Below, one piece after another: positions 6,000 through 59,481 of a stretch of 64,000 nt of DNA. The translations under genes and the position numbers were made by a program. Source of the stretch: Azolla caroliniana (Eukaryota; Plantae; Polypodiophyta); contig JBHGNT010000020.1 of assembly GCA_043228905.1 (NCBI GenBank), forward strand, positions 1,364,001-1,428,000. Reading direction: 5' to 3'. Position 1 is the stretch's first letter. The number at the start of each line of letters is the position of its first letter. The notes beneath the pieces were generated by a model. It did no database searches and had not been told where the DNA came from. It was given only the letters and a program-made list of their open reading frames with translations.

Positions 6000-7167
6000 T
6001 GTCGTGAAGATCCGTCACTACGCGCGGATCGTGAGGCGGAACCGCCGGGGTTCTGGACCGGAAGGTCTCGAAGTTGTCACAAGCTTTAGCGGGAAAGGAA
6101 TTAAGATAGATTGAAAGAGAGAGATTGAGATAAGATAGAACGCTTGATTTTATATTGAGAGAGAGATTAAGAACTCTTGACTTTAGATTTCAAGAACAAG
6201 GTATATCATCCAAAGGATAACGAATTTTCTTCTTAATATTAATTTTGATTTAAAGTACAAATTTTTTTACTATCAAAGAATCCCCCATTGATCTTTTTCA
6301 TTCCCTCTTTTATAGATGCTCTCATGCATTTAAGGGTTCAAGACATGCATAAAATGCATGTTTGCCATTTGGTGCTCATGTATTACATGTGGTGCATGAT
6401 AACCATGTCATCATTTTAGCTCTCATGCATGAGAATTTATATGTAAAAGTAAAATGATAGAAATATAAATTCAACTAAATGTCATGGCTTAGTGGTAAGC
6501 CTATTGACTCTTAACTAGGAGGTGCAAGGTTTGAATCCTCACTTGCCCTCCTTGTATATATATATGTGATATTTATTTATTAATTTTGTCGCCAGCTTGC
6601 CGGATGTCGGTCGCTACCGGTTGTCAGTTACCGTCGATCGTCGGCCCGTCGGATGCCGGTTCCACCGGCTCGCCTTCTCCGTCTCTGTTGGATCACTGGT
6701 TGCCTCTGTCGGATCACTGGTTGCCGGTGTGCCACCGTCGCTTTGCTGGCTGCCGCCGGATCACCGGCTCTATCGCTGGTCTGGTTTTGGTTGGCCAAAA
6801 CCTTTACAAGTAGCTAGGCCACCTCCACTCTTAGTTCAAGTTACCTTGAACTCTCTATGCTCCACACATAGACACAAAGATAATAACTTTTACTCCACCT
6901 TATATATGGTGAGAGCCTTATTCGTCCTGTCTATGTGGGATATCTCATAATTTTCTCTTTTTCTTTCGCAACTTTTTACCCACATAAAGTTGACACTTAG
7001 ATGTCTGTTTCTTATGTAGTAAAGTGCACCTCTTCAAGATCTTCATCTTTTATACTAAGATATTAAACTTAGAATTAGTATATTCACTATTATTGTTTTA
7101 TATGATTGACACTTGATTTTGTACGTTTTATGTGATTTTCACACCATTGCCGAAAATCTTCATGACA
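6000..7167 (-). mobile_element. Solo LTR (or TIR element) with 12-bp terminal inverted repeat and 4-bp TSD ACGC
   Basis: TGTCGTGAAGAT...ATCTTCATGACA termini; ACGC at 5996-5999 and 7168-7171. The minus-strand start TGTCATGAAGATTTTCG matches the LTR start at 58794 (TGTCGTGAAGATTTTCG). Confidence 0.8.
6478..6548 (+). pseudogene. tRNA-derived (Lys-CTT-like) relic with pol III A and B boxes
   Basis: A-box TGGCTTAGTGG (6485-6495), D-stem GCTT/AAGC, CT-CTT-AA loop, B-box-like GGTTTGAATCC (6528-6538). Anticodon and acceptor stems pair poorly, so it is not a functional tRNA. Confidence 0.5.
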
Positions 7168-14570: not shown

Positions 14571-16557
14571 CTTCAAACTTGTCAACAACGTGAGTGGACC
14601 TCAAACCACCTAGACGAAAAAAAAATCTTGAAGCAAAACAACCAACTTGCATGCGTTCCACACTTGCCTGATAGAACACTCCTAGTGTGGTAGTCTAGGT
14701 TGATTTCCTTGTCGTTGTTACCAACCCCCCGTCCGAACGAGCGATGCAAGGTCCACAACGTAGAATGTGATCTCCACCCCCACGTTCCTCTCGAGATGAG
14801 ATAGAGAGAGCTTGGAGCTTCCCAAGGATACTCCTTTGAAAGGAGGTAGTACGAACACCGGTCTATCTACGTTCATCAATGTAGCACACTTGGAACCATA
14901 CGTGTCCCACCGTAGTCCCCACATGTTTAGTGTTTGAGCGTTAGCGGGTTCTAGTTTAATGTCCACGTGCTCACACACCCCTACATGCACATGCGAGTGC
15001 ACACATTTACGTATACATGCTATCGTTGCTCGATAAGTTCTCACGCAAGGAGGAGAATGTGCTACAGGTTGCGCCCAAATTGTCTAGGAACAATATGACA
15101 CCTAGGATTAGCCTAGACATGTGGGAGGGTGGACTAGTTGGTATGGGTTTTGTGCAAGAGTTGTACGTAAGACGCAAACATTATGGTAATCGGAGACTTG
15201 GTGAGTGACATGCATGTGCTCTGATTGCATGGTCATGTGTATATAAAGGTGGAGGGAGGAATGTCAATACAGTCCATTAGGAGACAAGCACTCAAATCGC
15301 AATGGCAAAGCTTACTTCCGTATTCCTCATGGCCATGATCATGCTCATTACGTGTACTGCAACCAATGCTAGGTCCGTAGGGCAGGACCATGAAGAGGAG
15401 CGACGCGATTGACGTCGTGAGGGAGACATTGACAAGGAGAGGCGTGATTGACACCGAAAGGGGGAGTAGGACGAGGAGAGGCATGAGTGATGTCGTGAGG
15501 GGTTCCCTGAGGAGGGGCATTGCTACAGAGACAACAGAGAAAGACTCCAAAGAGGAGAGGAAACGTCGTAGATATGGTCGCGATGAGCCATGTGACGAGG
15601 AACTGAGGCGAGAGTTCGATGACTTCATTGACAAGCAAATCCGAGAGCTACAAGACCGCTCCGAAAGAGAGGAAGGTGAACAAGGACGTCGCTCCCCATG
15701 GATCGAAAACACTCGATATAGTTCAAGACCCTCAGAATGGTGCTGTAAGAACGTCGAATGAATCCCCGTCGAAGATCGATGCGATCGCCTACATGATGCC
15801 TTGTATGTGACGAGGAGGAATGATGCAATGAAGGTCGCCGCCATGGCCAACAATCAAGGGAACACCATAGGTGGGAGGAAGAGGACGAGGAGCGCGAGAT
15901 ACATAGCCATGAGGGACAAGAGGGTGGCAAGAGAGATATACGTGGGCGACAACAAGGTGACAAATGCCACCACCGCATGTCCCGACGACAAGAGCACGAA
16001 CAACAACAACGTCGTCAGTTCAAGGCCGATGACAAGGAAAGAGCTCTAGGCATCGCCGCCTCCTACCTAATCCAACAATGTGATCTTTGCCCTTGTGCTT
16101 GTATTCATTGCTCCTAAATAATACATCAACCTTGTTCAAATTATTCTCATGGTCTCCCTTTAATTTGTCCTAGTGTTTACGAACAAGTGTGTTTCCCCAA
16201 TCACGCATTACACCGACACGAACGTAAACACGAGCCCCAACAACTTTCGAACAACCGTGTCCCTCCGACGTATAGAATTTGTCTATATTGGACGCTCTAT
16301 TCTAGTCCACGATCCATACGAAACAAATTCTCCAAACTTGTCAATGATGCGAGTGGATCTCAAACCACCCAGATAGAAAAAAACCTCGAAGCAAAACACC
16401 CAACTTGCACATATCAACTGCTAACGTCAACTTGACAACACGGAGAATGTGACATTGCGTTCCACACTTGCCCAATAGGACACTCCTAGTGTGGTAGTCC
16501 GGGTTGCTTTCCTTGTCGTTGTTACCAACCCCCTGTCTGAACAAGTGATGCAAGGTC
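14571..16557 (+). repeat. Unclassified ~1.76-kb tandem repeat unit (copy 1 and start of copy 2)
   Basis: 14571-15295 aligns with 16330-16557 plus 37358-37853 as diverged copies; GTATATAAAGG TATA-like box at ~15239 and ~37795. Confidence 0.7.
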
Positions 16558-16976
16558 TGTTGTTCTCTGACCGGACAAGGCCTAACACAAGGTGTCACGG
16601 AGACACTTCACCAAAGGGTGATTACGGCATAGGATTATGACTCAACGATTACACCGACTTAAGTAGGTTACACGATTAGAGCGCTTTTGTTAATTACACG
16701 CGTAAGATATAACAGTAATTACAGAACGGAAATCAACACAGAAGTATAAACACCATACGCTCTATTAATTATCCGCTGCGATTACAATGGGGTCCGGGCC
16801 TTTAAATAGGTTTCCGGCCCGTAGTACAAAACGGTGCCTATCGCACCTATTCGGGATCCGTCCGGATCTGGAACGGCATACCGTTTCCAGTCCGTCCGTC
16901 CACACTATGCTTATTTACAACCATACTTAATTAATTCCTTCACTCCGTATTTTGGACTCCTTGCCGGCCGGTAACA
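16558..16976 (-). repeat. Gypsy 3' LTR (419 bp)
   Basis: TGTTG...GTAACA; direct repeat of 36685-37102. Confidence 0.95.
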
Positions 16977-16978
16977 CA

Positions 16979-16994
16979 TGGCACGCCCGTGGGA
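16979..16994 (+). promoter_or_regulatory. Inverted PBS-like site (tRNA-Arg UCU 3' end) at the position of the PPT
   Basis: TGGCACGCCCGTGGGA, 2 nt from the LTR. It matches the remembered plant tRNA-Arg(UCU) complement TGGCACGCCCGGTGGGA with one G missing. Confidence 0.7.
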
Positions 16995-17028
16995 TAGTAC
17001 CTTGTACGTCGAACCCTTCTCGGCCCCT

Positions 17029-18357
17029 TCATTGTTCACCCAAATTGTCCAAAATACTTTGTTCCAGAGTTTCCAATTGTTCTTCCGGTTGTGGTTGTTG
17101 CGGCTGTGCTTGCTGCTGCTGCTGTGGTTGCGGTTGGGACTGAGACTGCTCCGGCTGCTCTATTGGCGGCTGCTCCGTTTGTTTCTCTGACTCCGGCATC
17201 TCCGTTTGACTGTTTCCGGTCCGGTCTCCTTCCAGTAACGGTTCCTCATCACTGAGGTTGACCGTAACCGGTTCTCGTGCTTTCTCTTCCCGGATCCGGG
17301 ACCTCTCGTAGCTTTCAAACTGGATCTGCGCCTCCAGCCTGTCGTCGTCCAGCTGAGCTACAAGTTGCCGGACTTTCCCTAGTTGGTCCTCTGCCAAGGC
17401 TTGAAAGTCTTCGGCTAGCTCATCTCTTATGCCGGTGAAGTCTTTGGAAGTCAGCATATAGCAATCATCCCCCTCCTTCCGCCGGTTCTCTACGTCGGCC
17501 CGGAGCAATTGGAGTTCCGCCGCGTTCTGGGCCCACTTGGTCCACCATTTGACGGAACCGCCGTCAATCAAGCTCTTGGTCTGGTTCAACCAGGCCCGCA
17601 TGATATCCTGGATGCGACTTGCTCCCATTTGCGCTCTACTTTCCACAACTTGTCGTTCCTCCTTCAACTGCTTGATGAGATTAGCAGTATCCTCCGCTTG
17701 CTCTTTGTAGTGCGTCAGCTGCCCTTGATATGTTGTTTGCAGCTTCTGCAGTACCGCCGCCGCTCTTTCTCTTTCCGCCTGCTGTTGCCTGAGGAGCTCC
17801 GTCCGAACCTTCTCTGCCTCTTCCAACCGTCTTCTGGTTTCCGCTTGTTCATTAGCGTATGCCGTTGCGGTCCGATCAACTGCTTGTCGGAGCTCATCCA
17901 TCCGTTCCTTGTGCTCCGTTTGCATCCGTTTATACTCCCGGTGCAAGTGCTCAAACTCCTCCGTTTGTTGTTTGAGCTTGCCGTTGATCTGGCGATGGTT
18001 CCGGTCCTCCCGGTCCTTTTGCTGCCGGAGTTCCTCTTTCAGGCGCTCTACTTCTGTTTCGGCGTTCCTCCGGAGCCTGTCCTTCTCTTGCAGCATTTTC
18101 TCCTTCTCCTCCTTGAGCCGGTCGTACGCTTGGTGGCCTTTTCGTAAGCTCTCCTCGGCCCGGCGTAGATTCTCAGCAGTCTTTTTGAGTTCTGCCTCCG
18201 CTGCCGTCTTCAACTCTCTTTCGTGGCTCCTCAGCGCTTCTTGGGCAGCTAGCTCATCCTTTAAGTCCGCAAGCTCTTGGGCTTGTGCCGCATTTCTCTC
18301 CGGAACGGTTTCCGTTGTCGGGGTCTTATTGCTATGTACAGGTTGATCTGACGCTTT
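17029..18357 (-). CDS. C-terminal half (long coiled coil, Q/P-rich tail) of the Gypsy extra ORF
   Basis: In frame with 29016-30356 once Copia A and one ATTCT copy are removed (...GNVQN|KASDQP...). Confidence 0.8.
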   Translation of the reverse strand, partial: KASDQPVHSNKTPTTETVPERNAAQAQELADLKDELAAQEALRSHERELKTAAEAELKKTAENLRRAEESLRKGHQAYDRLKEEKEKMLQEKDRLRRNAETEVERLKEELRQQKDREDRNHRQINGKLKQQTEEFEHLHREYKRMQTEHKERMDELRQAVDRTATAYANEQAETRRRLEEAEKVRTELLRQQQAERERAAAVLQKLQTTYQGQLTHYKEQAEDTANLIKQLKEERQVVESRAQMGASRIQDIMRAWLNQTKSLIDGGSVKWWTKWAQNAAELQLLRADVENRRKEGDDCYMLTSKDFTGIRDELAEDFQALAEDQLGKVRQLVAQLDDDRLEAQIQFESYERSRIREEKAREPVTVNLSDEEPLLEGDRTGNSQTEMPESEKQTEQPPIEQPEQSQSQPQPQQQQQAQPQQPQPEEQLETLEQSILDNLGEQ

Positions 18358-18999
18358 ATTCTTGTTGGGAATCGACGCTCCGATTCACTTTCACCACTCG
18401 GCCACAACCGAGGAAACACACGAATCAATGCAGCAGAAAATAGGAAACACAGAGAAAGACACGATGACACAGGGATTAACGTGGAAAACCCTGTACGGGA
18501 AAAACCACGGGAGTACAAGACTCCGAACCAAAACTATGCACAGAGAAATATACAATGGCGAGCTGCAAGGCGACGACCTTGAGCTCGCTGTCCTCGCCAC
18601 AGGCGGCGGAATTACACAGAGGCGTCGACCTCTTCCTTTCTCACACTCTATCTCTCTCACGGCTGCTCTCTCTCTCTCTCTCACGGCTGCTCTCTCCCTT
18701 CACTCCTCTTGAGTGGAAAAACAGAAAAATGAGTAGCAACAATAAACTGTTTGCCCTAAGTCATATTTATACACATATGACTTTGGGGCTATTTACAACT
18801 ATAGCCTCAAGGGCCCTTGGCAAACATATTCACAGATATGTCCCCGCATCCGGATCTCTCTCCGGGTACATTCGTCATCCGGCTCCGAAGCCGGGGTCTT
18901 CATCATCCGGTTCCGAAACCGCAACCGGGCTTGTCGGCATTCATCTCCGACATCCGACCATCCCATCCGAAGGGACCGTAATCCCAACAAACTCCCCCT

Positions 19000-21900
19000 T
19001 CACTCCGGCATGGGATGTCTCTCCAATCCGATCCTCTTCCGGCATGCTTCCAGCTTGTCGGATGTGAGCACCTTGGTCAGCATATCCGACCCGTTCTCGT
19101 CCGTGTGGATCTTCGTCAGCACGAACTCCTTGTCTTCTATCCTTTCCCGGATCCAGTGATATCTTCGCTGGATGTGCTTCGTCCAGGAGTGATAGGCCGC
19201 GTTCTTCGCAAGGTGGATTGCACTCTGACTGTCGCAGTAGAGTCGGTCCTCCTCCTGCCGGATACCGAGCTCTCTAATGAAGTCCTTCATCCATATTATT
19301 TCCTTGCCGGCTTCAACAGCCGCCATGTACTCCGCCTCCGTGGTTGACAACGCAACCGTCTTCTGCAGCCTCGACTGCCATGAAACAGCTCCCCCTGCAT
19401 ACGTCATCACATACCCTGATGTGGACCGGCTGGTATCTGCATCAGCCGACATATCCGAATCGGTGAAGCCGTCGAGTTCGGGCTTACCGGAGCCGAATCG
19501 GAGGCACACGTTTGCCGTGCCCTTCAGGTATCGGAGTATCCACTTGGCCGCGTTCCAATGCTCTTTGCCGGGATTGCTCATGTACCGGCTCACCACTCCG
19601 ACTGCATATCCTATGTCCGGTCGGGTACACACCATTGCGTACATCAAGCTCCCGACGGCAGAGGCATATGGCACTTTCATCATGTCCTCCTTCTCAGCCT
19701 TTGTCTTGGGGCTTTGCTTGCTGGACAGCTTGCAGTTTGCCGGGAGGGTCGATCCGACCGGTCTTGCTTCCGACATGTTGAACCGGTGAAGCACCTTTGT
19801 CACGTACTTCTCCTGTGACAGCCACAACTGCTTCTTCTTCCGGTCCCGGATGATGTGCATCCCTAGTATTTGCCTCGCCGGACCCAAGTCCTTCATTGAG
19901 AAGGTTCGGTGAAGAGCCTTCTTCAGCATCCGTATCTTGCCCTGGTCTCGTCCGACGATCAACATGTCATCCACGTACAGGAGGAGTATTAGAAAGTCTC
20001 CTCCTTCGAACTTCTTCACAAACACGCAGTGATCGGACTGCGTTTTGTGGTACCCTTCGTCTGTCATGAAGGAGTCGAACTTCCGGTACCATTGCCGGGG
20101 AGCCTGCTTCAGACCGTAAAGGCTCTTCTTCAACCGGCATACCAGGTGCTCCTTCCCTTTCTTCTCGAATCCTTCCGGTTGCTGCATGTAGATCTCTTCT
20201 TCGAGGTCACCGTGAAGGAATGCCGTCTTCACGTCCATCTGTTCTACCTCGAGGTCCATGCTTGCCGCTATGCTCAACACCGTCCGGATGGAGGTCATCT
20301 TCACTACCGGGGCAAATATCTCGTCGAAGTCGACGCCCTTCTTCTGCTGAAACCCCTTCACCACGATCCTGGCTTTGTATCTCGGGGGGTTTCCGGCATC
20401 TCTCGGTTTCAGCTTGAACACCCACTTGTTACGGAGTGCCCGTTTTCCTTTCGGCAGCTCCACAAGTTCATATGTGTGGTTCTCATGCAGGGAATCCATC
20501 TCCTCCTGCATGGCACTTAACCACCTGCAGCTATGGGTGTCATGCTTCGCTTCTTCAAAGCTTTCCGGCTCCCCTTCGTCGGTTAGCAGCACGTGCTCTG
20601 GTTCCGGAAATCTCCGGGGGGCCCTTCTCTCTCTTAGAGGATATCTCCGTTCCGGAGCTTCGGTAACCGGTTCTTCCGATTCTTCTTCATCCGAATCCAT
20701 TTCGGGATCGGGGCCGGTTCCGGTATCATTTTCATCTTCTTCGGCCGGTACTATTTCTTCACCGTCTTCGGCCGGATCCTCGAGTGCTAACCGGTCCCTT
20801 GCCGGTCGGGACTGCTCCTCGTAGAGTTGATCCTCACCGGTCGACTTGGAGCTCTTCATCTTCTTCTCCGACTCCCAGTCGGCGAGTGTCTTGTTCTCCA
20901 TGAAGATGATATCACGACTCCGGAATATCTTCTTGTCGACCGGGTCCCATACTCGGTAGCCGAACTCGTCATCGCCGTAACCGAGGAATATGCATGGCCG
21001 GGTCTTTGGATCTAGCTTTCCTCTCCGGTCCTTAGCCACATGCACATATGCGAGACACCCGAACACCTTCAGATGCCGGTAGGATACTTCCCTACCGGTC
21101 CACACTCTCTGCGGCGTGTCTCCGTCCAAAGGTACTGAGGGTGATCTGTTTATCACGTATGTCGCCGTCGACATCGCCTCAGCCCAAAACCCCTTGGGTA
21201 ATTCCGCATGCGCCAGCATACTCCGGACCCTCTCCATTATGGTCCGGTTCATCCTCTCGGCCAGCCCGTTCAGTTCCGGCGTCTTCGGCACAGTAAACTC
21301 GAGCCGGATTCCCTTCAAGCGACAGTACTCCGCGAACTGCCCCCGGTATTCCCCTCCGTTATCCGCTCGTATCGCTTTCAGCTTCTTGCCGGATTCCCTT
21401 TCCACTCTCGCGTGGAGTTCTTTGAAGACGCACAACACTTGGTCCTTTGTCTTCAACGGTGCCGTCCACAGCTTCCGGCTGTGATCATCAATGAATATTA
21501 CGAAGTACTGGGCTCCGCCATGTGACTTCGTTTCTACCTGACACACATCAGTGTGCACCAACTCCAATGGTGCGCTACGTCTCGTCGGTGGCCTTGAGTG
21601 GAAGGAGGTTCGGTTCTGCTTACCGGCCAGGCAATCGGTGCACTTCTCCAGGTGCACATGCTTCACTGGAATAAGGTTGTCTTCTGCAAGCCTCTTCATC
21701 CCCTTCTCACTCATGTGGCACAGTCTCTTGTGCCACAGCTCACCGGCAGTGTCGGCTGCCACGTTCAACTCTTCCGGACACAACCAGGCATTCATAAGGT
21801 ACAGTGTGTTGACTTTCCGGGCCCGAGCCACTATTAGGCTCCCTTTGCTGAACTTCATTACGCCGTTCCGGATGCTACCTGTGTAGCCTTCATCGTCTAG

Positions 21901-23073
21901 CCTCCCGGCCGAAATCAGGTTCAATCGAACCTCCGGAACGTGTCGGACATCCTTCAACAGCATTTTGCATCCGGTCGAGGTTGTCAACCACACGTCTCCT
22001 ATGCCGGCAATCCGGCACGTACCTTCATTTCCCATCCGAACACAGCCATGCTCACCGGCTGTGTAGGATGAGAAGTATCTTCTCTCCGGGGTCAGGTGGA
22101 ACGATGCTCCGGAATCGACCACCCAGGTCGTCTCATCGCCGGCAATGTTTAGTTCACCTTCTTCGGTGATGAGCATGATTTCTTCCTCACTTGCCGCGAG
22201 TGCCGTCGTTCCTTTCCGGTCTTGCCCTCGCCGATCCGAACCTCTCCGGTCCGTGGCTCCCCGGTATGCACCGTTTCTCTCCGGTGACTTCTTCGAATCG
22301 GTGTCGTCGGCTCCGTTGTCCTTTCGGTAATGCCGACAATTCTTCCGGAAGTGCCCCGGCTTCCCACAGTGGAAGCATGTGGGTCTTCCTCTTGACTGCG
22401 ACCGGGTCCCCGACTTCTCCCGTCTTTGCGGACTCCGGTTCCATTGTCTTCCCCGTTCTGATTCGGTAAGCAGCGCCTTCGAGTCGGAGGCCGGTTCTTT
22501 ATCTCTCCGACGCGCTTCTTCGTTCAAAATACTTGTCTTTACCGTTTGTAGGGACAAGTTATCTTCCGTGCAGGAGGTGCTGAGAGTCACCACCAAGTTC
22601 TCCCAGCTTTCCGGCAATGTACACATCAGAATGATGGCTTGCATTGCATCCTCCAGCGGGAACTTGATCGCCGCAAGCTGGTTCACGAATCCCATGAACG
22701 TGCTTACGTGTTCCACCATACTCTCGCCGTCCCGGTACTTGAGGTTCACTATCTTCCTCATCAGGGAGGTCCGGTTCAACGCATTCTTCCTCTCGTAGAG
22801 GCCCGACAGCTTCCGCCACATCTCATATGCGTTGATGTCGTTCGCCACATGTTGTAGAACGCTCACGTCGACGTATTGCCGAATGGTTGCAACGGCTTTC
22901 CGGTTCAGAAGCCTCCATTCCGACTCAAGTACCCCCTTCGGTATTTCCGACCTGTCAATCGGTTCGTACAGGTCCCGAACAATCAGAAGATCCTCCATCT
23001 TGATCTTCCAGTCGGCGTAATTCTGCGCATTCAGCACCATCATCCCCGACTGCCCGCTGCCGCCGCCTTCCAT
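19000..23073 (-). CDS. Copia Gag-Pol polyprotein (1357 aa from MEGGG)
   Basis: CFHCGKPGHFRKNC, VDSGAS, WHKRLCH, HTDVC...RADNGGEY...AERMNRT, YVDD, FTDSD...ADMLTK-type end (SDMLTK). No stops. Confidence 0.95.
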   Translation of the reverse strand: MEGGGSGQSGMMVLNAQNYADWKIKMEDLLIVRDLYEPIDRSEIPKGVLESEWRLLNRKAVATIRQYVDVSVLQHVANDINAYEMWRKLSGLYERKNALNRTSLMRKIVNLKYRDGESMVEHVSTFMGFVNQLAAIKFPLEDAMQAIILMCTLPESWENLVVTLSTSCTEDNLSLQTVKTSILNEEARRRDKEPASDSKALLTESERGRQWNRSPQRREKSGTRSQSRGRPTCFHCGKPGHFRKNCRHYRKDNGADDTDSKKSPERNGAYRGATDRRGSDRRGQDRKGTTALAASEEEIMLITEEGELNIAGDETTWVVDSGASFHLTPERRYFSSYTAGEHGCVRMGNEGTCRIAGIGDVWLTTSTGCKMLLKDVRHVPEVRLNLISAGRLDDEGYTGSIRNGVMKFSKGSLIVARARKVNTLYLMNAWLCPEELNVAADTAGELWHKRLCHMSEKGMKRLAEDNLIPVKHVHLEKCTDCLAGKQNRTSFHSRPPTRRSAPLELVHTDVCQVETKSHGGAQYFVIFIDDHSRKLWTAPLKTKDQVLCVFKELHARVERESGKKLKAIRADNGGEYRGQFAEYCRLKGIRLEFTVPKTPELNGLAERMNRTIMERVRSMLAHAELPKGFWAEAMSTATYVINRSPSVPLDGDTPQRVWTGREVSYRHLKVFGCLAYVHVAKDRRGKLDPKTRPCIFLGYGDDEFGYRVWDPVDKKIFRSRDIIFMENKTLADWESEKKMKSSKSTGEDQLYEEQSRPARDRLALEDPAEDGEEIVPAEEDENDTGTGPDPEMDSDEEESEEPVTEAPERRYPLRERRAPRRFPEPEHVLLTDEGEPESFEEAKHDTHSCRWLSAMQEEMDSLHENHTYELVELPKGKRALRNKWVFKLKPRDAGNPPRYKARIVVKGFQQKKGVDFDEIFAPVVKMTSIRTVLSIAASMDLEVEQMDVKTAFLHGDLEEEIYMQQPEGFEKKGKEHLVCRLKKSLYGLKQAPRQWYRKFDSFMTDEGYHKTQSDHCVFVKKFEGGDFLILLLYVDDMLIVGRDQGKIRMLKKALHRTFSMKDLGPARQILGMHIIRDRKKKQLWLSQEKYVTKVLHRFNMSEARPVGSTLPANCKLSSKQSPKTKAEKEDMMKVPYASAVGSLMYAMVCTRPDIGYAVGVVSRYMSNPGKEHWNAAKWILRYLKGTANVCLRFGSGKPELDGFTDSDMSADADTSRSTSGYVMTYAGGAVSWQSRLQKTVALSTTEAEYMAAVEAGKEIIWMKDFIRELGIRQEEDRLYCDSQSAIHLAKNAAYHSWTKHIQRRYHWIRERIEDKEFVLTKIHTDENGSDMLTKVLTSDKLEACRKRIGLERHPMPE

Positions 23074-23477
23074 TTTTTGCAGCAGCTCGCTCTGATACCA
23101 GTTTGTTGGGAATCGACGCTCCGATTCACTTTCACCACTCGGCCACAACCGAGGAAACACACGAATCAATGCAGCAGAAAATAGGAAACACAGAGAAAGA
23201 CACGATGACACAGGGATTAACGTGGAAAACCCTGTACGGGAAAAACCACGGGAGTACAAGACTCCGAACCAAAACTATGCACAGAGAAATATACAATGGC
23301 GAGCTGCAAGGCGACGACCTTGAGCTCGCTGTCCTCGCCACAGGCGGCGGAATTACACAGAGGCGTCGACCTCTTCCTTTCTCACGCTCTATCTCTCTCA
23401 CGGCTGCTCTCTCTCTCTCTCTTGTTGGGATTTCGGTCCCTCCGGATGGGATGTCCCCGGAGATAAATGACAGCAAG

Positions 23478-23585
23478 CCCGGTTACGGAGCCGGATGATG
23501 AAGACCCCGGTTACGGAGCCGGATGATGAAGACCCCGGTTACGGAGCCGGATGCTGAAGACCCCGGTTACGGAGCCGGATGACGA
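23478..23585. repeat. 28-bp tandem repeat in the U3 of Copia B (also ~28130-28237)
   Basis: CCCCGGTTACGGAGCCGGATGATGAAGA, about 4 copies. Confidence 0.9.
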
Positions 23586-24079
23586 ATGTACCCGGAGAGA
23601 GATCCGGATGCGGGGACATATTTGTGAATATGTTTGCTAAGAGCCCTTGAGGCTATATTTGTAAATAGCCCGAAAGTCATATGTGTATAAATATGACTTA
23701 GGGCAAACAGTTTAAGTTGTTGCTCATTTTGAGAGAGAGAGAAAAGTGAGTAGCCGAGAGAGAGAGAGAGAGAGAGAGAGACGAAGAGGTCGTTGCCTCT
23801 GTGTACTGCCGCCGCCTGTGGCGAAGACAGTGAGCTCAAGGTTGTTGCCTTGTAGCTTCACCATTGTACATCTCTGTCTATAGTGATAGTTGGAGTCGGA
23901 GGACTCCCGTGGTTTTTCCCCAGTTAGGGTTTTCCACGTAAAACATCCCGTGTACTCTTCTCTCTATTGTACTTCGTGCATTTTGTATTTCCTGTTTTCG
24001 GAAAGTTGATCCTATTCCTCGGTTGTGGCCGAGCACTGTTGTCCTACAAATTGGTATCAGAGCACGGTTAACACAGAAA

Positions 24080-27000
24080 ATGGAAGGCGGCGGTAGTGGG
24101 CCTCCGGGCATGATGGTGTTGAACTCACATAACTACGCCGACTGGAAGATAAAGATGGAAGACCTTCTCATCGTCCGAGACCTGTATGAACCGATCGACA
24201 ATGCGAGATACCCAAGGGGGTAATAGAGTCGGAGTGGAAGCTCCTGAACCGGAAAGCCGTAGCGACGATCCGGCAATATGTCGATGTAAGCGTTCTACAA
24301 CAATGTGGCGAATGACACCAACGCATATGAGATGTGGAAGAAGCTGTCGGGCCTCTACGAGAGGAAGAATGCGTTGAACCGGACCTCCCTGATGAGGAAG
24401 ATAGTGAACCTCAAGTACCGGGACGGCGAGAATATGGTTGAACACGTGAGCACGTTCATGGGATTCGTGAACCAGCTTGCGGCGATCAAGTTCCCGTTGG
24501 AGGATGCAATGCAAGCCATCATTCTGATGTGTACATTGCCGGAAAGCTGGGAGAACTTGGTGGTGACTCTCAGCACCTCCTGCACCGAAGATAACTTGTC
24601 TCTACAAACGGTAAAGACAAGCATTTTGAACGAAGAAGCGCGTCGGAGAGATAAAGAACCGGTTTCCGATCCGAAGATGCTGCTTACCGAATCGGATCGG
24701 GGAAGACAATGGAACCGGAGTCCGCAAAGACGGGGAGAAGTCGGGGACCCGGTCGCAGTCAAGAGGAAGGCCCACATGCTTCCACTGTGGGAAGCCGGGG
24801 CACTTCCGGAAGAATTGTCGGCATTACCGAAAAGACAACGGAGCCGACGACACCGATTCGAAGAAGTCACCGGAGCGAAACGGTGCATACCGGGGAGCCA
24901 CGGACCGGAGATGTCCGGATCGGCGAGGGCAGGACCGGAAAGGAACGACGGCACTCGCGGCAAGTGAAGAAGAGATAATGCTCATTACCGAAGAGAGGGA
25001 GCTGACCCTTGCCGGTGAAGAGATGACCTGGGTGGTCGATTCCAGAGCGTCGTTCCACCTGACCCCGGAGAAGAAATACTTCTCATCCTACACAGCCGGG
25101 GAGCACGACTGTGTCCGGATGGGAAATGAAAGTACATGCCGGATTGCCGGCATAGGAGATGTGTGGCTGATGACATCAACCGGATGCAAAATGCTGCTGA
25201 AGGATGTTCGACACGTTCCGGAGGTTCGATTGAACCTGATTTCGGCCGGGAGGCTAGACGATGAAGGCTACACGGTAGCATCTGGAACGGTGTCATGAAG
25301 TTCAGCAAAGGAGCCTGATAGTGGCTCGGGCCCGGAAGGTCAACACACTGTACCTGATGAATTCCCGGCTATGTCCGGAGGAGCTGAACGTGGCAGCTGA
25401 CACTGCCGGTGAGCTGTGGCACAAGAGACTGTGCCACATGAGCGAGAAGGGGTTGAAGAGGCTTGCCGAAGACAACCTGATACCAGTGAAGCATGTGCAC
25501 CTAGAGAAGTGTACCGACTGTCTGGCCGGTAAGCAAAACCGGACCTCCTTCCACTCAAGGCCACCGACGAGACGTAGCGCACCATTGAGTTGGTGCACAC
25601 TGACGTGTGTCAGGTAGAAACGAAGTCACATGGCGGAGCCCAGTACTTCGTAACATTCATAGATGACCATAGCCGGAAGCTGTGGACGGCACCGTTGAAG
25701 ACAAAGGACCAAGTAATATGTCCGTCTTCAAAGACTCCACGCGAGAGTGAAAAGGGGAATCCGACAGGGAGCTGAAAGCGATACGAGCGGATAACGGAGG
25801 AGAATACCGGGGCAGTTCGAGGAGTACTGTCGCTCGAAGGGAATCCGGCTCGAGTTTACTGTGCCGAAGACGCCGGAACTGAACGGGCTGCCGAGAGGAT
25901 GAACCGGACCATAAACAAATCACCCTCAGTACCTTTGGACGGAGACACGCCGCAGAGAGTGTGGACCGGTAGGGAAGTATCCTACCGGCATCTGAAGGTG
26001 TTCGGGTGTCTCGCATATGTGCATGTGGCAAAGGACCGGAGAGGAAAGCTAGATCCAAAGACCCGGCCATGCATATTCCTCGGTTACGGCGACGACGAGT
26101 TCGGCTACCGAGTATGGGACCCGGTCAACAAGAAGATATTCAGGAGTCGTGATATCATCTTCATGGAGGACAAGACACTCGCCGACTGGGAGTCGGAGAA
26201 GAAGATGAAGAGCTCCAAGTCGACCGGTGAGAATCAACTCTACGAGGAGCAGTCCCGACCGGCAAGGGACCGGTTAGCACTCGAGGATCCGGCCGAAGAC
26301 GGTGAAGAAATAGAACCGGCCGAAGAAGATGAAAATGATACCGGAACCGGCCCCGATCCCGAAATGGATTCGGATGACGAAGAATCGGAAGAACTGGTTA
26401 CCGAAGCTCCGGAACGGAGATATCCTCTAAGAGAGAGAAGGGCCCCCCGGAGATTTCCTGAACCAGAGCACGTGCTGCTAACCGACGAAGGGGAGCCGGA
26501 AAGCTTTGAAGAAGCGAAGCATGACACCCATAGCCGCAGGTGGTTAAGTGCCATGCAGGAGGAGATGGATTCCCTGCATGAGAACCACACATATGAACTT
26601 GTGGAGCTGCCGAAAGGAAAACCGGCACTCCGTAACAAGTGGGTGTTCAAGCTGAAACCGGGAGATGCCGGAAACCCCCCGAGATACAAAGCCAGGATCG
26701 TAGTGAAGGGGTTCCAGCAGAAGAAGGGCGTCGACTTCGACGAGATATTTGCCCCGGTAGTGAAGATGACCTCCATCCGGACGGTGCTGAGCATAGCGGC
26801 AAGCATGGACCTCGACGTAGAACAGATGGACGTGAAGACGACATTCCTTCACGGTGACCTCGAAGAAGAGATCTACATGCAGCAACCGGAAGGATTCGAG
26901 AAGAAAGGGAAGGAGCACCTGGTATGCCGGTTGAAGAAGAGCCTTTACGGACTGAAGCAGGCTCCCCGGCAATGGTACCGGAAGTTCGACTCCTTCATGA

Positions 27001-28064
27001 CCGACGAGGGGTACCACAAAACGCAGTCCGATCACTGCGTGTTTGTGAAGAAGTTCGAAGGAGGAGACTCTCTAATACTCCTCCTGTACGTGGACGACAT
27101 GTTGATCGTCGGACGGGACCAGGGCAAGATACGGATGCTGAAGAAAGCACTTCACCGAACCTTCTCAATGAAGGACCTGGGTCCGGCGAGGCAAATACTA
27201 GGGATGCACATCATCCGAGACTGGAAGAAGAAGCAGTTGTGGCTGTCACAGGAGAAGTACGTAACAAAGGTGCTTCACCGGTTCAACATGTCGGAAGCAA
27301 GACCGATCGGATCAACCCTCCCGGCAGACTGCAAGCTGTCCAGCAAACAAAGCCCCAAGACAAAGGCTGAGAAAGAGGACATGATGAAAGTACCATATGC
27401 CTCTGCCGTCGGAAGCTTGATGTACGCAATGGTGTGTACAAGACCGGACATAGGATATGCAGTCGGAGTGGTGAGTCGGTACATGAGCAATCCCGGCAAA
27501 GAACACTGGAACGCGGTCAAGTGGATACTGCGATACCTGAAGGGCACGGCAAACGTATGCCTCCGATTCGGCTCCGGTAAGCCCGAACTCCACGGCTTTA
27601 CCGATTCGGATATGTCGGCTGATGCAGATACCAGCCGGTCCACATCAGGGTATGTGATGAGGTATGCAGGGGGAGCTGTTTCGTGGCAGTCGAGGCTGCA
27701 GAAGACGGTTGCGTTGTCAACCACGGAGGCGGAGTACATGGCGGCTGTTGAAGCCGGCAAGGAAATGATATGGATGAGGGACTTCATTAGAGAGCTCGGT
27801 ATCCGGCAGGAGGAGTACCAACTCTACTGTGACAGTCAGAGTGCCATCCACCTTGCGAAGAACGCGGCCTATCACTCCCGGACGAAGCACATCCAGCGAA
27901 GATATCACTGGATCCGGGAAAGGATAGAAGACCAGGAGTTCGTGCTGACGAAGATCCACACGGATGAGAACGGCTCAGATATGCTGACCAAAGTGCTCAC
28001 ACCCGACAAGTTGGAAGCATGCCGGAAGAGGATCGGATTGGAGAGACATCCCATGCCGAAGTGA
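24080..28064 (+). pseudogene. Disrupted Gag-Pol of Copia B
   Basis: Several small indels at ~24200-25900 and an 87-bp integrase deletion; the RT/RH part (25899-28064) is open. Confidence 0.9.
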
Positions 28065-28405
28065 AGGGGGAGTTTGTTGGGATTTCGGTCCCTCCGGATG
28101 GGATGTCCCCGGAGATAAATGACGGCAAGCCCGGTTACGGAGCCGGATGATGAAGACCCCGGTTACGGAGCCGGATGATGAAGACCCCGGTTACGGAGCC
28201 GGATGCTGAAGACCCCGGTTACGGAGCCGGATGACGAATGTACCCGGAGAGAGATCCGGATGCGGGGACATATTTGTGAATATGTTTGCTAAGAGCCCTT
28301 GAGGCTATATTTGTAAATAGCCCGAAAGTCATATGTGTATAAATATGACTTAGGGCAAACAGTTTAAGTTGTTGCTCATTTTGAGAGAGAGAGAAAAGTG
28401 AGTAG

Positions 28406-28436
<31 letters not shown>

Positions 28437-29015
28437 GAAGAGGTCGTTGCCTCTGTGTACTGCCGCCGCCTGTGGCGAAGACAGTGAGCTCAAGGTTGTT
28501 GCCTTGTAGCTTCACCATTGTACATCTCTGTCTATAGTGATAGTTGGAGTCGGAGGACTCCCGTGGTTTTTCCCCAGTTAGGGTTTTCCACGTAAAACAT
28601 CCCGTGTACTCTTCTCTCTATTGTACTTCGTGCATTTTGTATTTCCTGTTTTCGGAAAGTTGATCCTATTCCTCGGTTGTGGCCGAGCACTGTTGTCCTA
28701 CATCTCTCACGGCTGCTCTCTCCCTTCACTCCTCTTGAGTGGAAAAACAGAAAAATGAGTAGCAACAATAAACTGTTTGCCCTAAGTCATATTTATACAC
28801 ATATGACTTTGGGGCTATTTACAACTATAGCCTCAAGGGCCCTTGGCAAACATATTCACAGATATGTCCCCGCATCCGGATCTCTCTCCAGGTACATTCG
28901 TCATCCGGCTCCGAAGCCGGGGTCTTCATCATCCGGTTCCGAAACCGCAACCGGGCTTGTCGGCATTCATCTCCGACATCCGACCATCCCATCCGAAGGG
29001 ACCGTAATCCCAACA

Positions 29016-36684: not shown

Positions 36685-37102
36685 TGTTGTTCTCTGACCG
36701 GACAAGGCCTAACACAAGGTGTCACGGAGACACTTCACCAAAGGGTGATTACGGCATAGGATTATGACTCAACGATTACACCGACTTAAGTAGGTTACAC
36801 GATTAGAGCGCTTTTGTTAATTACACGCGTAAGATATAACAGTAATTACAGAACGGAAATCAACACAGAAGTATAAACACAATACGCTCTATTAATTATC
36901 CGCTACGATTACAATGGGGTCCGGGCCTTTAAATAGGTTTTCGGCCCGTAGTACAAAACGGTGCCTATCGCACCTATTCGGGATCCGTCCGGATCTGGAA
37001 CGGCATACCGTTTCCAGTCCGTCCGTCCACACTATGCTTATTTACAACCATACTTAATTAATTCCTTCACTCCGTATTTTGGACTCCTTGCCGGCCGGTA
37101 AC
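36685..37102 (-). repeat. Gypsy 5' LTR, lacking its outermost base
   Basis: Ends GGTAAC|TAG, against GGTAACA in the other LTR. Confidence 0.95.
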
Positions 37103-37357
37103 TAGTCCACGATCCATACGAAACAAATTCTCCAAACTTGTCAATGATGCGAGTGGATCTCAAACCACCCAGATAGAAAAAAACCTCGAAGCAAAACACC
37201 CAACTTGCACATATCAACTGCTAACGTCAACTTGACAACACGGAGAATGTGACATTGCGTTCCACACTTGCCCAATAGGACACTCCTAGTGTGGTAGTCC
37301 GGGTTGCTTTCCTTGTCGTTGTTACCAACCCCCTGTCTGAACAAGTGATGCAAGGTC
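37103..37357. repeat. 255-bp exact duplicate of 16303-16557 flanking the Gypsy element
   Basis: TAGTCCACGATCC...GATGCAAGGTC is identical on both sides, offset 20800. Confidence 0.95.
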
Positions 37358-38757: not shown

Positions 38758-39018
38758 AGCTCTCTGTAAGTTCACTCTGGCCATCGTTTTCTACATTATA
38801 TAGCTCATTGGAAAGCTCTTTCAGCGAGCTTTCTAAAGAATGTTCATTTATTGAATTTCGTTACCGTGGCGAGAAGTTATGAGCATTTTCATCTGTAACC
38901 ATCTTTGCCTCACGGTTCCTCAAACGCAAGGTAGATTTTGAAGCTCTAAATCGAGTGAAAGGTACATTTTCTCCCCTTCCCTCTCTGTCTCTCTCTTCCC
39001 GTAGGGTTTGTCCCTACA

Positions 39019-39888
39019 ATGGCAAATACTCGTAAAGCCGCCGCAAAGTTCAAGGGTATGATTGATAATGAGCCGAGATCACCAACAAATCTCGATTCCA
39101 ATGCAATGGACAAAATGCTTATGAGTCACTTGATTTCTTTTGAAGAAACCATAAACAAGCAAGGTGAAGAGATTAGGACGTTAATGAAAGAGAATGCTAA
39201 GTTCCAAAGTGTTGTCATTGAGAATGAAAGTCTTAAACAAGTGGTTGCAAAACTTCAAGAAGAGATTCAAGAATGTAAAAGAGCTTCTTTCGAAACAAAT
39301 GAGTGCCTTAACAAGATTGAGTTAAAGGAAGCATTAAATGAAGAAAAATTGGACACGATGAGGCGAGATGTAAGTGAGAGGAAAAATGTATGTACAACGA
39401 AGTCATGGGCCGATGTATGTGGTGGGGATGTGCTATCAAATTCATCTAATATGCATGTGATGCATCAAGAGAAGAATATAGAAAGCATAGATGTCCGAGA
39501 ATTGAAAGAACGTGAACGACGATCAAAGAACATTGTCGTCCGTGGGATTAAAGAAGAGAGTATGGAAACACCCGCATCCCTTGGAAAGGTCATTGGTGAA
39601 TTTTTTAGCATGCATTATGGGATGTCAGATGTGAATGTATATGGGGCACACCGAGTTGGGAAACATGGTGTTACTCACTCCGGAGAAAGGCCTATTGTAT
39701 GCACAATGACAGATGATACAAAGCGGCGGATCATACTCGAAAATAGTTCGGTATACCTCAAAGGTACTCAATGCTTTGTGAGTGAAGATCGTATTATCTC
39801 ACAATAAAATGCTCTCCGTAAAGCATATGAAGAAACATTGAAAAACAAGGTTAAGGATGTGCCTAAAGATGGAAATGTAGGCAAATAG
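39019..39888 (+). pseudogene. LINE ORF1 (one internal stop at 39805-39807)
   Basis: Coiled coil, RRSKNIVVRG, HRVGK...RPIV, FVSED motifs. Confidence 0.85.
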
Positions 39889-42800
39889 GGACACGTGATC
39901 TATGAGACTAACCCACGCCTTTTATGACTATGCTTTTGGAATTGCAATGGATACCCATGGAATGCGGGATTTGGCATAGATGAGTTCACCGATGACTCGG
40001 ATATCACACTTCTTGTTGAAACATGGGAGCATGATACTAAAAGGATTCAAGGTTTAGGAAACTATAATGTACACTTTTTGATATGGAAGAAAAATCTAAG
40101 ACAAAGAAGAGGACAAGGAGGGGTGGCATGTTTGATTAAGAAGGAAATGGAGAAATATGTGTCAATCATAAAAAATGATGAACATAAATGTTACATATGG
40201 CTCAAAATAGAAACACCTAATGATTTTCCCACTTTTGTAGTTGGATGTTACATTCCTCATCAAGATTCTAACTTTTATGCTTGTTTGGATAAAGGTCAAC
40301 CTTTTGCCAATCTAGAAGACGATGTTGCTTATTTCAAATCCAAAGAGGAAGTTATTGTCTTTGGTGACATGAATGCTCATACAAGACGTTTCCAACTTGA
40401 TTCACAAGAATCTTTCATGCCACATATCTCAAGGATGCAAGAGGATATGCAAATGTATAGTCGCTCTTCTAGCGATGAAAAAGATCCGGACCAATTTGGG
40501 AAGTTACTCCTACAAATGTGCAATAGTACCGGATTGCTTATTACAAATGGTATTTCCTTATGGCCCAACACTAATGGTTTTACATGTAGAAAACACAACG
40601 GAAATAGTGTGATTGACTATGTGCTACTTTCTGAAGGTATTTTGGATCGTACACATAAATTCTCACTTGGTGAATGGACACCGGAATCCGATCATAGGCC
40701 TTTATGTATTGATCTCAAATGTATGCATAAGTTTGATTGTGAGAAGGCTATTGAAGTTAATAAACAACCGCACTTGAGCATGAACCTTAAACGAGCACCC
40801 ATGTATTCCAAGATGGTTGAGGATATGTTACAAATGACAAAGATACAACATGGTGCCACACTAGAACGCAAATGGGAAGCTTTCAAGAAAGTCATTCTCT
40901 CATGTACAAACAAATGTTTTTTGACCCCTTATTCAAAGAAAGAGAAGAATATGGGAAGTTACTCAACAATTTATCCAAACGCAAGAGAAATCACATGCAT
41001 GTGCTAAAATTTGGGGAAATCTAAAGGGGAAACGTGTTGAGAGTTATGGTGACTTAACTCTTCACGACTTGTCTATGCATTGTAAGAATTTATATGAGTT
41101 ATCTCTTGCCGGAGTGATGATGTGCTATGGTTCTCTTTCACATATGCCTCCCTTCTTTACAATTGAAGATATATGCATAGGACTTAAGAAATTGGCCTCT
41201 CGAAATGCAAGCGATCTTCAATGTATAAAGGCTAAAATGCTAAAATGGACGGGAAAGGAAGCACATATATGGATAAGTGATATGTTTAATGATGCATTGC
41301 AACATGGTATGCCGTACGATTGGAGTACAAATTGGATCAAACCTTTACATAAAGCTAGAGATATAAATAATGTAAACAACTATCCAACCATCATGGTTGT
41401 CTCATTAAAGGCAAAACTATTTGGATGTATAATGGAATCAAAGATAAGTCTATGGGCTGAAAACAATGGTAAGAGAGCTTATGGAAAAGCTGGCTTTCGG
41501 AAACACCATAGCACCATGGATCACCTTATCACCTTTCGAGTATTAATGGAGGAAAGTCGCCTTAGAGGTAAAGGTTTATATTTTTGCTTTGTAGACTTCA
41601 AGAAAGCTTTTGATATGGTACCTCATGAGCATCTTTGGAGGCGAATGGAAGAACTTGAGGTGCCAAGTGAATATATGCTTGCAATTTCCCTAATTTATGA
41701 GAAGGTTATATGTTGTGTGCACATGAGAGATAAACTTTTAGATTTTTTCAAAAGCACTATTGGTGTTAAGCAAGGATGCCCACTCTCACCAACACTATTT
41801 GGTCTATGCATTGATGAATTGGAAGAAATGGTTACCAAGTTTGCAAAGGAAGAATGTGTTGAAGAAGTTGCCCTTGGTAATGTTGTGATTATGCTTTTGC
41901 TATATGAAGATGATGTAGTGTTTTTTGCAAATACTTTACGAGATGCACAAAAGCTTATGAAGGCATTGGAAAAATTTTGCATGCATACTAAATTAAGTGT
42001 CAAAAGCTCTAAAACTAAGATTATGCTTGTGAAGAGACAAAAAAGAGATAAACCATGCATTATGTACAACAATGAGCCACTTGAATGTGTGGAAAGCTTC
42101 ACATATCTTGGCCTTGAGGTTCCTTCAAATCATAGATGGAATGAATGTGCTACATGCCCCTCAAAGGTGGGTAAGCGAGCATACTATGCATTTGAGAACA
42201 CATGCAATCTTGGAGATATGAAGTGTTGGGTCCTCAAGAAATATCTTTTCGACACTTTGGTGACACTAGTTCTTCTCTATGGGGTGGAAGTATGGGGCGG
42301 TAGCATCCCTAAATCTATGTGGAAAGAGTTTGAAAATGCCCAAAAACATTTTCTTACAAAGTTTCTACAAGTTAAGAAACAAACGCCCTACACCCTCCTC
42401 CTTGAGATGAGATCGCTTCCCATTGAGATCATGGGCATGGAAAGGGTTGTTGAATACATGCTTAAGGTTCAAAAAATTCCCTCACATTGACTTCCTAGAA
42501 TTGCGTGGGAAGCAAGCAAAAAGATCCAAAAGAAGCATAAAAGCAAAATTTTGTGTTCCGGTTGGATGCAAGATATAGAAAAATGGTTTGGTAGATGGGA
42601 TGCAAGACACTTGCTTCATGATACATCATTAGATTCCTTTGTAAATGAGGCCTTTTTGCAATGCCAATGTATCATGACATGGGACAAATGTGGAGGTTCA
42701 CGCTTCACACATTATACTACACATGTTGCACCTAACTATAAAACCATATTCTTTGCGGAACGGGGAAATCGTACACATCGATACATGTTAGAGCCCATAC

Positions 42801-43123
42801 CGTTATCTACCATTCGAACCATTGCTTCCATGCGACTTAGCTCACATGCATTGCGATGTGAAATAGGGCATTGGGGCACAAGTTATGAGAGTGGTCGGCT
42901 ATGCACACTTTGCCCTAAACAAGTTCGCGAGTCTGAGTATCACACTTTGATACAATGCTCTGCCTTTGATCATATTCGACGATGCTTTCCACATCTCTTC
43001 GACCGAGCCCAATCCTTGCATGAATTCCTCTTACAACCACAATGTGCACTCTCGATTGCAACATTCATTGGTAAAGTTCTTGAACATCGAGAGTCACTAC
43101 TCACTTTCACACGTATCACGTGA
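39889..43123 (+). pseudogene. LINE ORF2 (endonuclease, RT, zinc finger), disrupted
   Basis: WNCNG, ETW, GGVA, GDMNA, VIDY, SDH; GFRK, FVDFKKAFD, GVKQGCPLSP, YEDD (from YADD), YLG. Confidence 0.9.
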
Positions 43124-44699: not shown

Positions 44700-45215
44700 C
44701 GTGTGAGGCGAAGAAGAGAGACAAGACTCACATGACAAGGAAGACACCCACGAAGAAGAAAATGGTCAAAGAAAAAGCCAACACACTGTGCAAGGAAAGA
44801 AAAAGGACCCCCCTCAAAGAAAGTTAGATGACCCCCACTAGAGGGAGGTCGAAGTTTTCAACAACTCAGGGCAAGAAGATGTACACAAACATCCTTCGAG
44901 GTACAAAATTAGGATGGGGTAATTTCCTTCATGCACGACCTGACACTTATGAAGACCTAGACATGTGGATGATGAAAACTTGGGGCTCATCACAATCCGA
45001 GACAATGAGAGGTTTCCACATCACTCAATTGAACAAGGATTATATCACTAAACTAAAGTCACATTATGAACAAGTTTATGATACGAAACATGTCCGAAAC
45101 AATGAGGTAAGAACTATTTTTGCAGGTACATTTGCATGTGAACTCCATGCTGGCATTGAAGTTGATTGGGAAGATTTTGCTCATCATCAATCATCACATT
45201 ATAGACAACCACAAT
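44700..45215 (+). pseudogene. Truncated exon of an unknown, probably transposon-associated, gene
   Basis: Coding-like composition after AT-rich, intron-like sequence (possible donor GAAG|GTAATC ~43765); YEQVYD...FACELHAGIEVDWEDFA; cut by the Copia D remnant. Confidence 0.35.
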
Positions 45216-46505: not shown

Positions 46506-46790
46506 TGTTGGGAACTTGACGTTCCTTATGTCCGACGCTCGGCCACAACCGAGATTCTTTACATACACAGCAAAACAGGTAATTAAAACGCGACACAAAA
46601 GAGGAGAAATGGTGCACAGGAGGTATACGTGGAAAACCCCAAAAAATTAGGGGGAAAAACCACGGCAGCCCACAAGCTGCAAACTGTCACTATGCAGAAG
46701 TATACAACAGTGAGATCACTGAGGCAACGACCTCGTGCTCTCAGATCTTCGCCACAGCCGGCGGTTACAACAGAGGCAGGCAACGACCTC

Positions 46791-46831
<41 letters not shown>

Positions 46832-51598: not shown

Positions 51599-51633
<35 letters not shown>

Positions 51634-58793: not shown

Positions 58794-59463
58794 TGTCGTG
58801 AAGATTTTCGTCCGTAGGCGGAAACCCGAGCGAAGCAAGCAAACCTGCGATGTGCAACATTGCACATCAACATGTTGTATTTCTATTTATCGATAGTGAT
58901 AAGTATGGTGCTAGAAATGCACCTTAGGATTTGTAAAGTGTAAAGATGATGTGCTTTTGCGCGCACATCCACGTGAGAGAGAGAGATAGGTACATAGTAG
59001 TTCGTGTAGAGGTGGGAGTTAAGACCCATCCTTCCCACCTCCCCTAAAATCAAGGGAAATATCCCCATTGATTGAAAGGGGATATTTTGTAGCACCCTTT
59101 TTGTAAACGGTCTTCTCTCCTTGTGCTATAAAAGGAGAGGAAGAGCACCATTGTGGGGGTTGCCTTATTTTTTAGTGTGAGTGAGGTATACCATTTCGTT
59201 TTAGGGTTAGGGTTTCGTTTAGGGTTCCTTAGTTAGGGTTTTCTTGTGTCGTTTGGTGCGGCCTACGCGGCCGCCATTTTGTAATCGGTTTTCGGTTCTA
59301 ATATATCTTGTTGAGCATTTGGCCTCCATCTTCCTCTTGTTCATTCTTTCTCTTCTTGTGCTAAGCTCCATTCCGAAGTCCTATTCCTTCTCCCCTTCTC
59401 CTTAGTCCAAGACCCCCGTGGTTCCGCCCTTCTCCACGCACTTGCGAAATATCTCGACATCTT

Positions 59464-59481
59464 TGGTGAACCCGACGTGAA
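59464..59481 (+). promoter_or_regulatory. Primer-binding site, tRNA-Trp
   Basis: TGGTGAACCCGACGTGAA, the complement of the remembered plant tRNA-Trp 3' end ...TTCACGTCGGGTTCACCA. Confidence 0.85.

Follow-up and report, generated by a model that had tools for sequence, protein, structure and literature searches.

The window analysed here, 64,000 nucleotides of Azolla caroliniana DNA (contig JBHGNT010000020.1), carries on its minus strand a Ty3/gypsy retrotransposon whose two long terminal repeats (LTRs), at 37102-36685 and 16976-16558, were delimited by comparing the window with itself. Where the polypurine tract (PPT) is expected, the 3′ LTR is directly preceded by a 38-nt block (17016-16979, minus strand) that copies the 3′ part of a tRNA. 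This block is real, conserved and located where the plus-strand primer must end. Judging from the sequences, a host tRNA probably primes the plus strand at this site. In the fuller form that we favour with the same reserve, a whole plant Ty3/gypsy lineage would have given up the PPT and would prime both DNA strands with host tRNAs, tRNA-Arg(UCU) docking on minus-strand DNA through a three-part site with a hairpin at the methylated position 58.

A tRNA end in place of the polypurine tract

Read on the minus strand, the CCA has its last base at 16979 and is separated by a 2-nt spacer (16978-16977) from the TGT that opens the LTR at 16976, exactly as in the first-pass annotation of this DNA, which had reported a tRNA-like 3′ end with CCA 2 nt from the 3′ LTR and no purine tract. 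Independent support for the LTR start at 16976 comes from the 5′ LTR, as well as from contigs belonging to other copies (public runs X8 and X20), which break off there. No PPT adjoining the 3′ LTR was found in the 20 nt before it, in which the longest purine run is 3. At the same position, the purine runs of the window's two nested copias measure 10 and 10, and a different LTR element of the window has a run of 5, with purines at 14 of 20 positions.

The block has three parts. The upstream part (17016-17009) is identical to the T-stem 5′ strand and the T-loop of the tRNA (positions about 51-58, in our own numbering), with two extra tRNA-like bases in most relatives. A 13-nt insert (17008-16996), lying between bases equivalent to tRNA positions 58 and 59, contains a 4-bp hairpin in which 17007-17004 pairs with 17000-16997. 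The last part (16995-16979) is a 17-nt copy of the tRNA-Arg(UCU) 3′ end with CCA, shorter than the tRNA by one base, and its minus-strand DNA would serve as a putative primer-binding site (PBS). The feature is thus longer than first claimed, reaching beyond the hairpin insert into the T-loop. In the spacer, the second base is G in 46 of the 50 relatives listed below and the first is variable.

Taken alone, the window copy is not beyond chance: an 11-mer with one mismatch allowed occurs twice in the window against 0.75 expected, and 17 of 100 shuffles reach two. The significance of the block comes from its conservation across copies and not from this single one.

Conservation of the block

Four public runs, covering three organisms and three studies, supplied contigs that were aligned to 16250-17400 at 80% likeness. 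Of 30 bins, 16952-16990 had the highest summed contig depth in every one of these runs, contig depth not being the same as copy number (a caveat of the tool). A single variant at 16995 is shared by 88, 83, 102 and 82 contigs in the four runs. Aligned to the window, the shared block terminates at 17016: in three runs, 50, 57 and 84 contigs diverge from the reference exactly behind this position into mixed sequence, and among the 491 contigs of run X8 on 16945-17035 depth falls from 44,942 to 7,742 across 17016/17017. A further, fourth organism, which shares almost no words with the element, has two contigs over 16972-17008. Run X22 had no contig over 16945-17035 and is not informative on absence. 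The block is therefore not private to the window copy. Sibling copies had been named in the first-pass annotation as the place where a normal PPT might appear; they carry the same block.

Metagenome assemblies were searched with a pattern that fixed the T-loop, the 3′ strand of the T-stem and GCCA, and allowed any insert of 12-14 nt and any acceptor strand of 6-7 nt, with no constraint on the spacer or the LTR. There were at least 121 matches in at least 120 loci, and the figures given here and below are among the matches listed. These divide into 50 sites (49 loci) from one assembly series of plant type and 71 other records. TGT follows exactly 2 nt past the CCA in 46 of the 50, against none of the 71; the acceptor strand measures 6 nt in all 50, against 40 of the 71, the pattern admitting 6 or 7; and a perfect 4-bp hairpin is present at 37 of the 50 sites, against one of the 71. 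With the window included, 47 comparable LTR starts fall into 33 clusters, the largest with 9 members. At 13 of the 50 sites a homologue of the element's extra open reading frame (ORF) lies upstream in the same sense, which identifies these sites as 3′ junctions. Variation in the acceptor strand is mainly G-to-A and C-to-T, as decay of methylated C predicts. Since the pattern sites were chosen by the block itself, the contigs of the four runs and of the fourth organism are the less selected evidence.

The hairpin was aligned for the window and 37 of the 50 sites (those with 13-nt inserts and enough flank; 13 were left out), giving 32 distinct rows. In this alignment 89.8% of the hairpin cells are paired and three of the four pairs have changed on both sides. 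Two-sided changes fill 16 cells, a value matched by none of 500 shuffles and by no slid control, although kinship among sequences can push values above such shuffles. On this alignment, the hairpin covaries.

Viral contigs gave no match to the exact junction and three to a loose pattern, none with TGT at +2, and they held no relative of the integrase (10 pattern matches, none confirmed). Prokaryote genomes gave one match in which the upstream block is absent, and we treat it as chance.

Which tRNA the two sites resemble

One metagenome relative, locus L024, contains two tRNA-Arg(UCU)-like copies (Rfam scores of 54.5 and 35.9 bits), one of them ending in CCA; ARAGORN, run over the 49 loci, called one tRNA, a member of this pair. 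From the T-stem to the CCA the block equals the L024 tRNA, except that the hairpin separates positions 58 and 59 and that the block is one base short at the junction of acceptor and T-stem. An earlier assignment of the site to tRNA-Arg thus finds a match, to decayed copies and with one base off. Using RNA parameters as a proxy for RNA/DNA, the predicted duplex between the last 32 nt of the CCA-bearing copy and the minus strand has an energy of -40.7 kcal/mol, compared with -22.3 ± 3.5 kcal/mol in 500 shuffles (lowest -37.4), and the same copy pairs with the element's 5′ PBS at -15.0 kcal/mol. ARAGORN called no tRNA gene in the 64-kb window.

The 5′ PBS (36678-36667, minus strand), which the first-pass annotation had correctly placed as a separate site after the 5′ LTR, is of the TGG-starting tRNA type and begins at 36678, 6 nt past the LTR end. 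Its tRNA end differs from that of the 3′ site, and by these sequence matches the two sites point to different tRNAs. The 5′ primer is presumably tRNA-Arg(UCG). A human PBS similar to this one is labelled Arg or Trp (PMC4724089).

At 2079-2154 and 2800-2872 of L024, an LTR end is followed, after a few bases, by a full-length tRNA-Arg(UCU) with CCA in complement and then by an integrase fragment, the tRNA-plus-integrase unit being repeated at 76% identity. It may have arisen when reverse transcriptase (RT) copied a primer tRNA from end to end, or it may be a repeat derived from tRNA.

A short family found as tandem arrays at five loci (L020, L029, L036, L061 and L068; period about 2.0-2.5 kb, LTR about 330 nt) carries a 10-nt tRNA-Arg PBS together with the inverted site, and has no match to the pol of the window element. 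These elements are likely non-autonomous partners of the gypsy lineage. Their PBS is for the same tRNA as the 3′ site and lies 2 nt past the LTR end AACA, mirroring the 3′ junction. In this family the 5′ PBS is complementary to the 3′ site over 10 nt.

A possible mechanism for plus-strand priming

In the canonical scheme of plus-strand priming (PMC5371799, PMC13332604), the start of the LTR is determined by where the primer for the plus strand has its 3′ end. Given that this start lies a constant 2 nt after the CCA across many unrelated LTRs, the scheme would have the primer end at or next to the CCA. At this site the sequence of the genomic RNA is that of the tRNA itself, so a tRNA could pair here only with minus-strand DNA.

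Minus-strand synthesis begins from the tRNA at the 5′ PBS, and after strand transfer the template is removed by RNase H. A second tRNA from the host, the simplest candidate for the primer, would then pair with the exposed minus-strand DNA in three segments of 10, 7 and 8-10 bp, with one tRNA base bulging at the junction of acceptor and T-stem and the DNA hairpin looping out at position 58. Position 58 of tRNAs carries a methyl-A that is unable to pair. RT would extend the CCA end across the 2-nt spacer into U3, after which RNase H would remove the tRNA and integrase would trim the 2 nt; one might speculate that so broken a hybrid restrains attack by RNase H. The mirror-image 5′ and 3′ junctions of the short tandem family suggest how such a site could have arisen, namely by an inverted copy of the LTR-end/PBS junction displacing the PPT junction.

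Alternative explanations

Several observations weigh against priming by a host tRNA. On a DNA template, HIV-1 RT tends to bind an ordinary RNA primer in the orientation for RNase H cleavage (PMC3185511), so that a tRNA paired with DNA is liable to be cut rather than extended. Both L024 copies have decayed and belong to a relative rather than the host, and each has at least one further difference from the site. Conservation or covariation with tRNA 3′ ends had been proposed as support in the first-pass annotation; the block is indeed conserved, but the listed sites include no switch to another tRNA and hence no tRNA covariation. None of the listed relative contigs joins the site to pol, the 50/71 split was made post hoc by contig-name prefix, and much of the final 20 nt is dictated by the pattern, so that the absence of a PPT at the 50 sites is in part built in. 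The only contig of run X20 over 16945-17035, which ends at the LTR start, has different DNA before that start, in which 8 purines in a row lie 10 nt away; we read this DNA as the flank of a 5′ or solo LTR. In the window itself, purine runs of 7 and 8 nt occupy 17030-17014, some 40-55 nt upstream of the LTR, and 11 of the 50 listed sites have a run of at least 7 inside 60 nt. Lastly, the wobble pairs of the hairpin favour the sense strand by 4 to 0 (alignment A1; small numbers), and a 3-bp T-stem is predicted in the sense RNA at 25 of 49 sites. These last two observations would fit the main rival, a self-primer that mimics a tRNA, in which the element RNA folds like a T-arm, evades RNase H, is cut after the CCA and primes as a non-purine PPT. 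Such a primer would account for a position and 2-nt register like those of a PPT and for the partial self-complementarity of the block, and it would make a second, trans-acting primer unnecessary. We nevertheless regard it as doubtful. An element's own cDNA always pairs with its RNA, so identity to one tRNA over 33 LTR clusters would be less needed. The two outer T-stem pairs are broken, uncompensated, in 10 and 7 of the 32 rows, and the RNA of the young window copy is predicted with its T-stem unfolded (pair probability 0.014), both of which argue against a folded RNA mimic. An exact complement of the acceptor strand occurs within 120 nt upstream at none of the 50 sites, so a full tRNA-like fold is absent.

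The purine runs upstream would instead suit a plus strand that starts elsewhere, at these runs or at an internal tract, while the block does another job (packaging, tRNA capture, a role at the integrase end, RNA processing, or as the target of a tRNA fragment on antisense RNA). There are precedents for a second tRNA site without a priming role, such as the 3′ PBS of Drosophila gypsy (PMC1635307). This we hold to be improbable: the end of the primer defines the LTR start, which the 5′ LTR and other copies alike place at 16976, and 39 of the 50 listed relatives lack a run of 7 or more inside 60 nt. As for the other jobs, the sense RNA equals the tRNA and so pairing with it is impossible, and the insert disrupts the spacing of an RNA polymerase III B-box. 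It is still harder to believe that the site is a PBS on an antisense transcript, the two DNA strands having separate RNA templates with a tRNA primer on each. Seen on the plus strand, the 3′ LTR with the site does resemble a 5′ LTR with its PBS, and the short tandem family has mirror-image junctions, but a co-packaged antisense genome would be required, of which there is no sign, and all ORFs share one sense. To a private rearrangement, a captured primer or an assembly artefact in the window copy we give almost no credence. The left end of this copy is odd (an absent T and a 256-bp duplication), yet the block recurs in hundreds of contigs from several organisms and studies, and in 50 listed sites of independent assemblies whose hairpin covaries.

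Two other ideas were set aside. Pairing in cis that joins the 5′ PBS to the 3′ site, as a general function, was represented only by a scattered duplex of -16.8 kcal/mol in the window element. A full tRNA mimic with G-U pairs allowed gave no clear partner at 35 sites, the best upstream duplex having -7.0 kcal/mol against -5.8 kcal/mol downstream.

Classification and comparison with known systems

The element has gag, protease, RT, RNase H and integrase, in this order, between two LTRs, which makes it a member of Ty3/gypsy and bears out the first-pass annotation on this point. The best solved RT relative is the Ty3 RT (E 1.9e-73), and the nearest named proteins, from liverworts and a fern, are 47-50% identical. 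In a quick tree of 67 RT-RNase H rows (matches covering at least 330 of 414 residues, shorter ones left out, labelled by species names and holding no lineage-labelled references), the element lies among liverwort and fern (seed-free-plant) and unnamed RTs, apart from the matches of seed plants. The C-terminal 247 aa of the integrase matched no Pfam family at E values up to 5; lacking a chromodomain, the element is placed outside the chromoviruses. The aRH domain defines Tat (TatI-III, Ogre, Retand; PMC6317226), and no RNase H family was found at its three known positions (between protease and RT, between RNase H and integrase, and after integrase) at E values up to 5. The element is therefore not Tat, and the Tat-group label in the first-pass annotation is not supported. 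The reading of a second tRNA primer site in that annotation otherwise agrees with the position, conservation and strand of the block and with the covariation of its hairpin.

Athila elements (PMC6317226; 10.64898/2026.03.20.713144) are alike in having no aRH, a forward extra ORF after pol and a gap of 3-6 nt between 5′ LTR and PBS. However, Athila of Brassicaceae has a conserved PPT junction and a tRNA-Asn/Asp PBS, neither of which is present here, and the Athila ORF-1 family PF03078 had no match in the element. Phygy and Selgy (PMC6317226) are short, with a polyprotein that fills nearly all of the internal part, whereas the window element has an extra ORF of about 890 codons.

Yeast Ty3 and HIV-1 (PMC5371799, PMC13332604, PMC3185511) share with the element a tRNA at the 5′ PBS, the order RT-RNase H-integrase, TG...CA LTRs and a short extension beyond U3, but their plus-strand primer is an element-encoded purine tract, where the window element has the tRNA 3′-end copy. 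The three-part site recalls the bipartite PBSs of Ty1 and Ty3, in which the tRNA is held in separate segments that include the T-arm, and the Ty1 segments are likewise split, by a small internal loop (PMC5371799). Second tRNA sites near the 3′ end are described for Ty3 and Drosophila gypsy (PMC5371799, PMC1635307). The Ty1, Ty3 and gypsy sites differ from ours in being complementary to the tRNA on the genomic RNA, where they serve minus-strand priming or bridging, and the second sites of Ty3 and gypsy leave the PPT in place; the window site includes the CCA, replaces the PPT and can pair only through minus-strand DNA. Helenus TRIMs (TRIMp3, PMC10886601) are also LTR elements bearing tRNA-derived sequence. 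They are non-coding, carry a tRNA-like RNA polymerase III promoter inside the LTR and keep both PBS and PPT, in contrast to the window element, which is coding and whose tRNA part lies outside the LTR, comprises the 3′ part only, includes the CCA and is accompanied by no PPT. That the ends of Ginger transposons contain tRNA sequence was not borne out, the word 'tRNA' being absent from PMC2836005.

Priming of the plus strand by a PPT is regarded as a trait that retroviruses share with LTR retrotransposons (PMC5371799, PMC13332604). A survey of plant elements typed PBSs and, in its accessible text, mentions the purine tract only twice (PMC6317226); its supplementary text has no match to either PBS motif, the per-element table apparently standing outside that text. 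The accessible parts of PMC4408406 and PMC11963269 are silent on PPT loss. In the literature searched, a search thin on subscription journals and Repbase reports, we found no description of a plus strand primed by a tRNA in the absence of a PPT, nor of a self-primer that mimics a tRNA; both are directly testable. If a host tRNA does prime here, a high-copy, recently active lineage without a PPT would represent a second solution to plus-strand priming. Its RT would be capable of elongating a tRNA paired with DNA, the kind of hybrid that HIV-1 RT is prone to cut. Such elements would be overlooked or placed in the wrong orientation by annotation tools for which a PPT is mandatory.

Architecture of the element and its surroundings

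The element copy is young yet no longer intact. Between its two LTRs there are 3 differences in 418 bases; the 3′ LTR (16976-16558, 419 bp, TGTT...AACA) has ends shared by further copies at 16976 and 16558, and the 5′ LTR (37102-36685) lacks its first T. A single frame at 36634-30725 (minus strand) encodes gag, a zinc knuckle, protease, RT, RNase H and integrase and is broken by two in-frame stops; the catalytic motifs of RT and RNase H are both present, and the protease match is weak (E 0.21). The extra ORF (30356-17029, minus strand), in the same forward sense, matches no Pfam family, stops 52 nt short of the 3′ LTR and is interrupted by a nested copia element (18363-29015), which itself contains a second copia.

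No target-site duplication (TSD) of 4-6 bp was found around the window copy, which is flanked instead by a perfect 256-bp direct repeat (16302-16557 and 37102-37357, the second overlapping the 5′ LTR start by one base) and has the clipped left end. Together the repeat and the missing first base would fit an aberrant integration through one end, or else an error of assembly. In organism B, a contig spans 16250-16557 with four differences and continues into non-LTR sequence, which fits an empty site bearing one copy.

The surroundings are rich in other elements. Related copia elements form a dense nest (18363-29015, 23422-28702 and 45204-58793), among which copia A has a PPT, a normal 5-bp TSD and a PBS that is presumably of tRNA-Met type. 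A further LTR element (58794-64000), with identical LTR starts at 58794 and 63772 and a G-rich tract before its 3′ LTR, truncates a copia copy and contains a repeat-rich ORF of 1432 aa without Pfam match. At about 6480-6550 a stretch that ARAGORN did not call looks by eye like a decayed tRNA or short interspersed element, and at 38959-43123 the plus strand holds a long interspersed element with endonuclease and RT domains.
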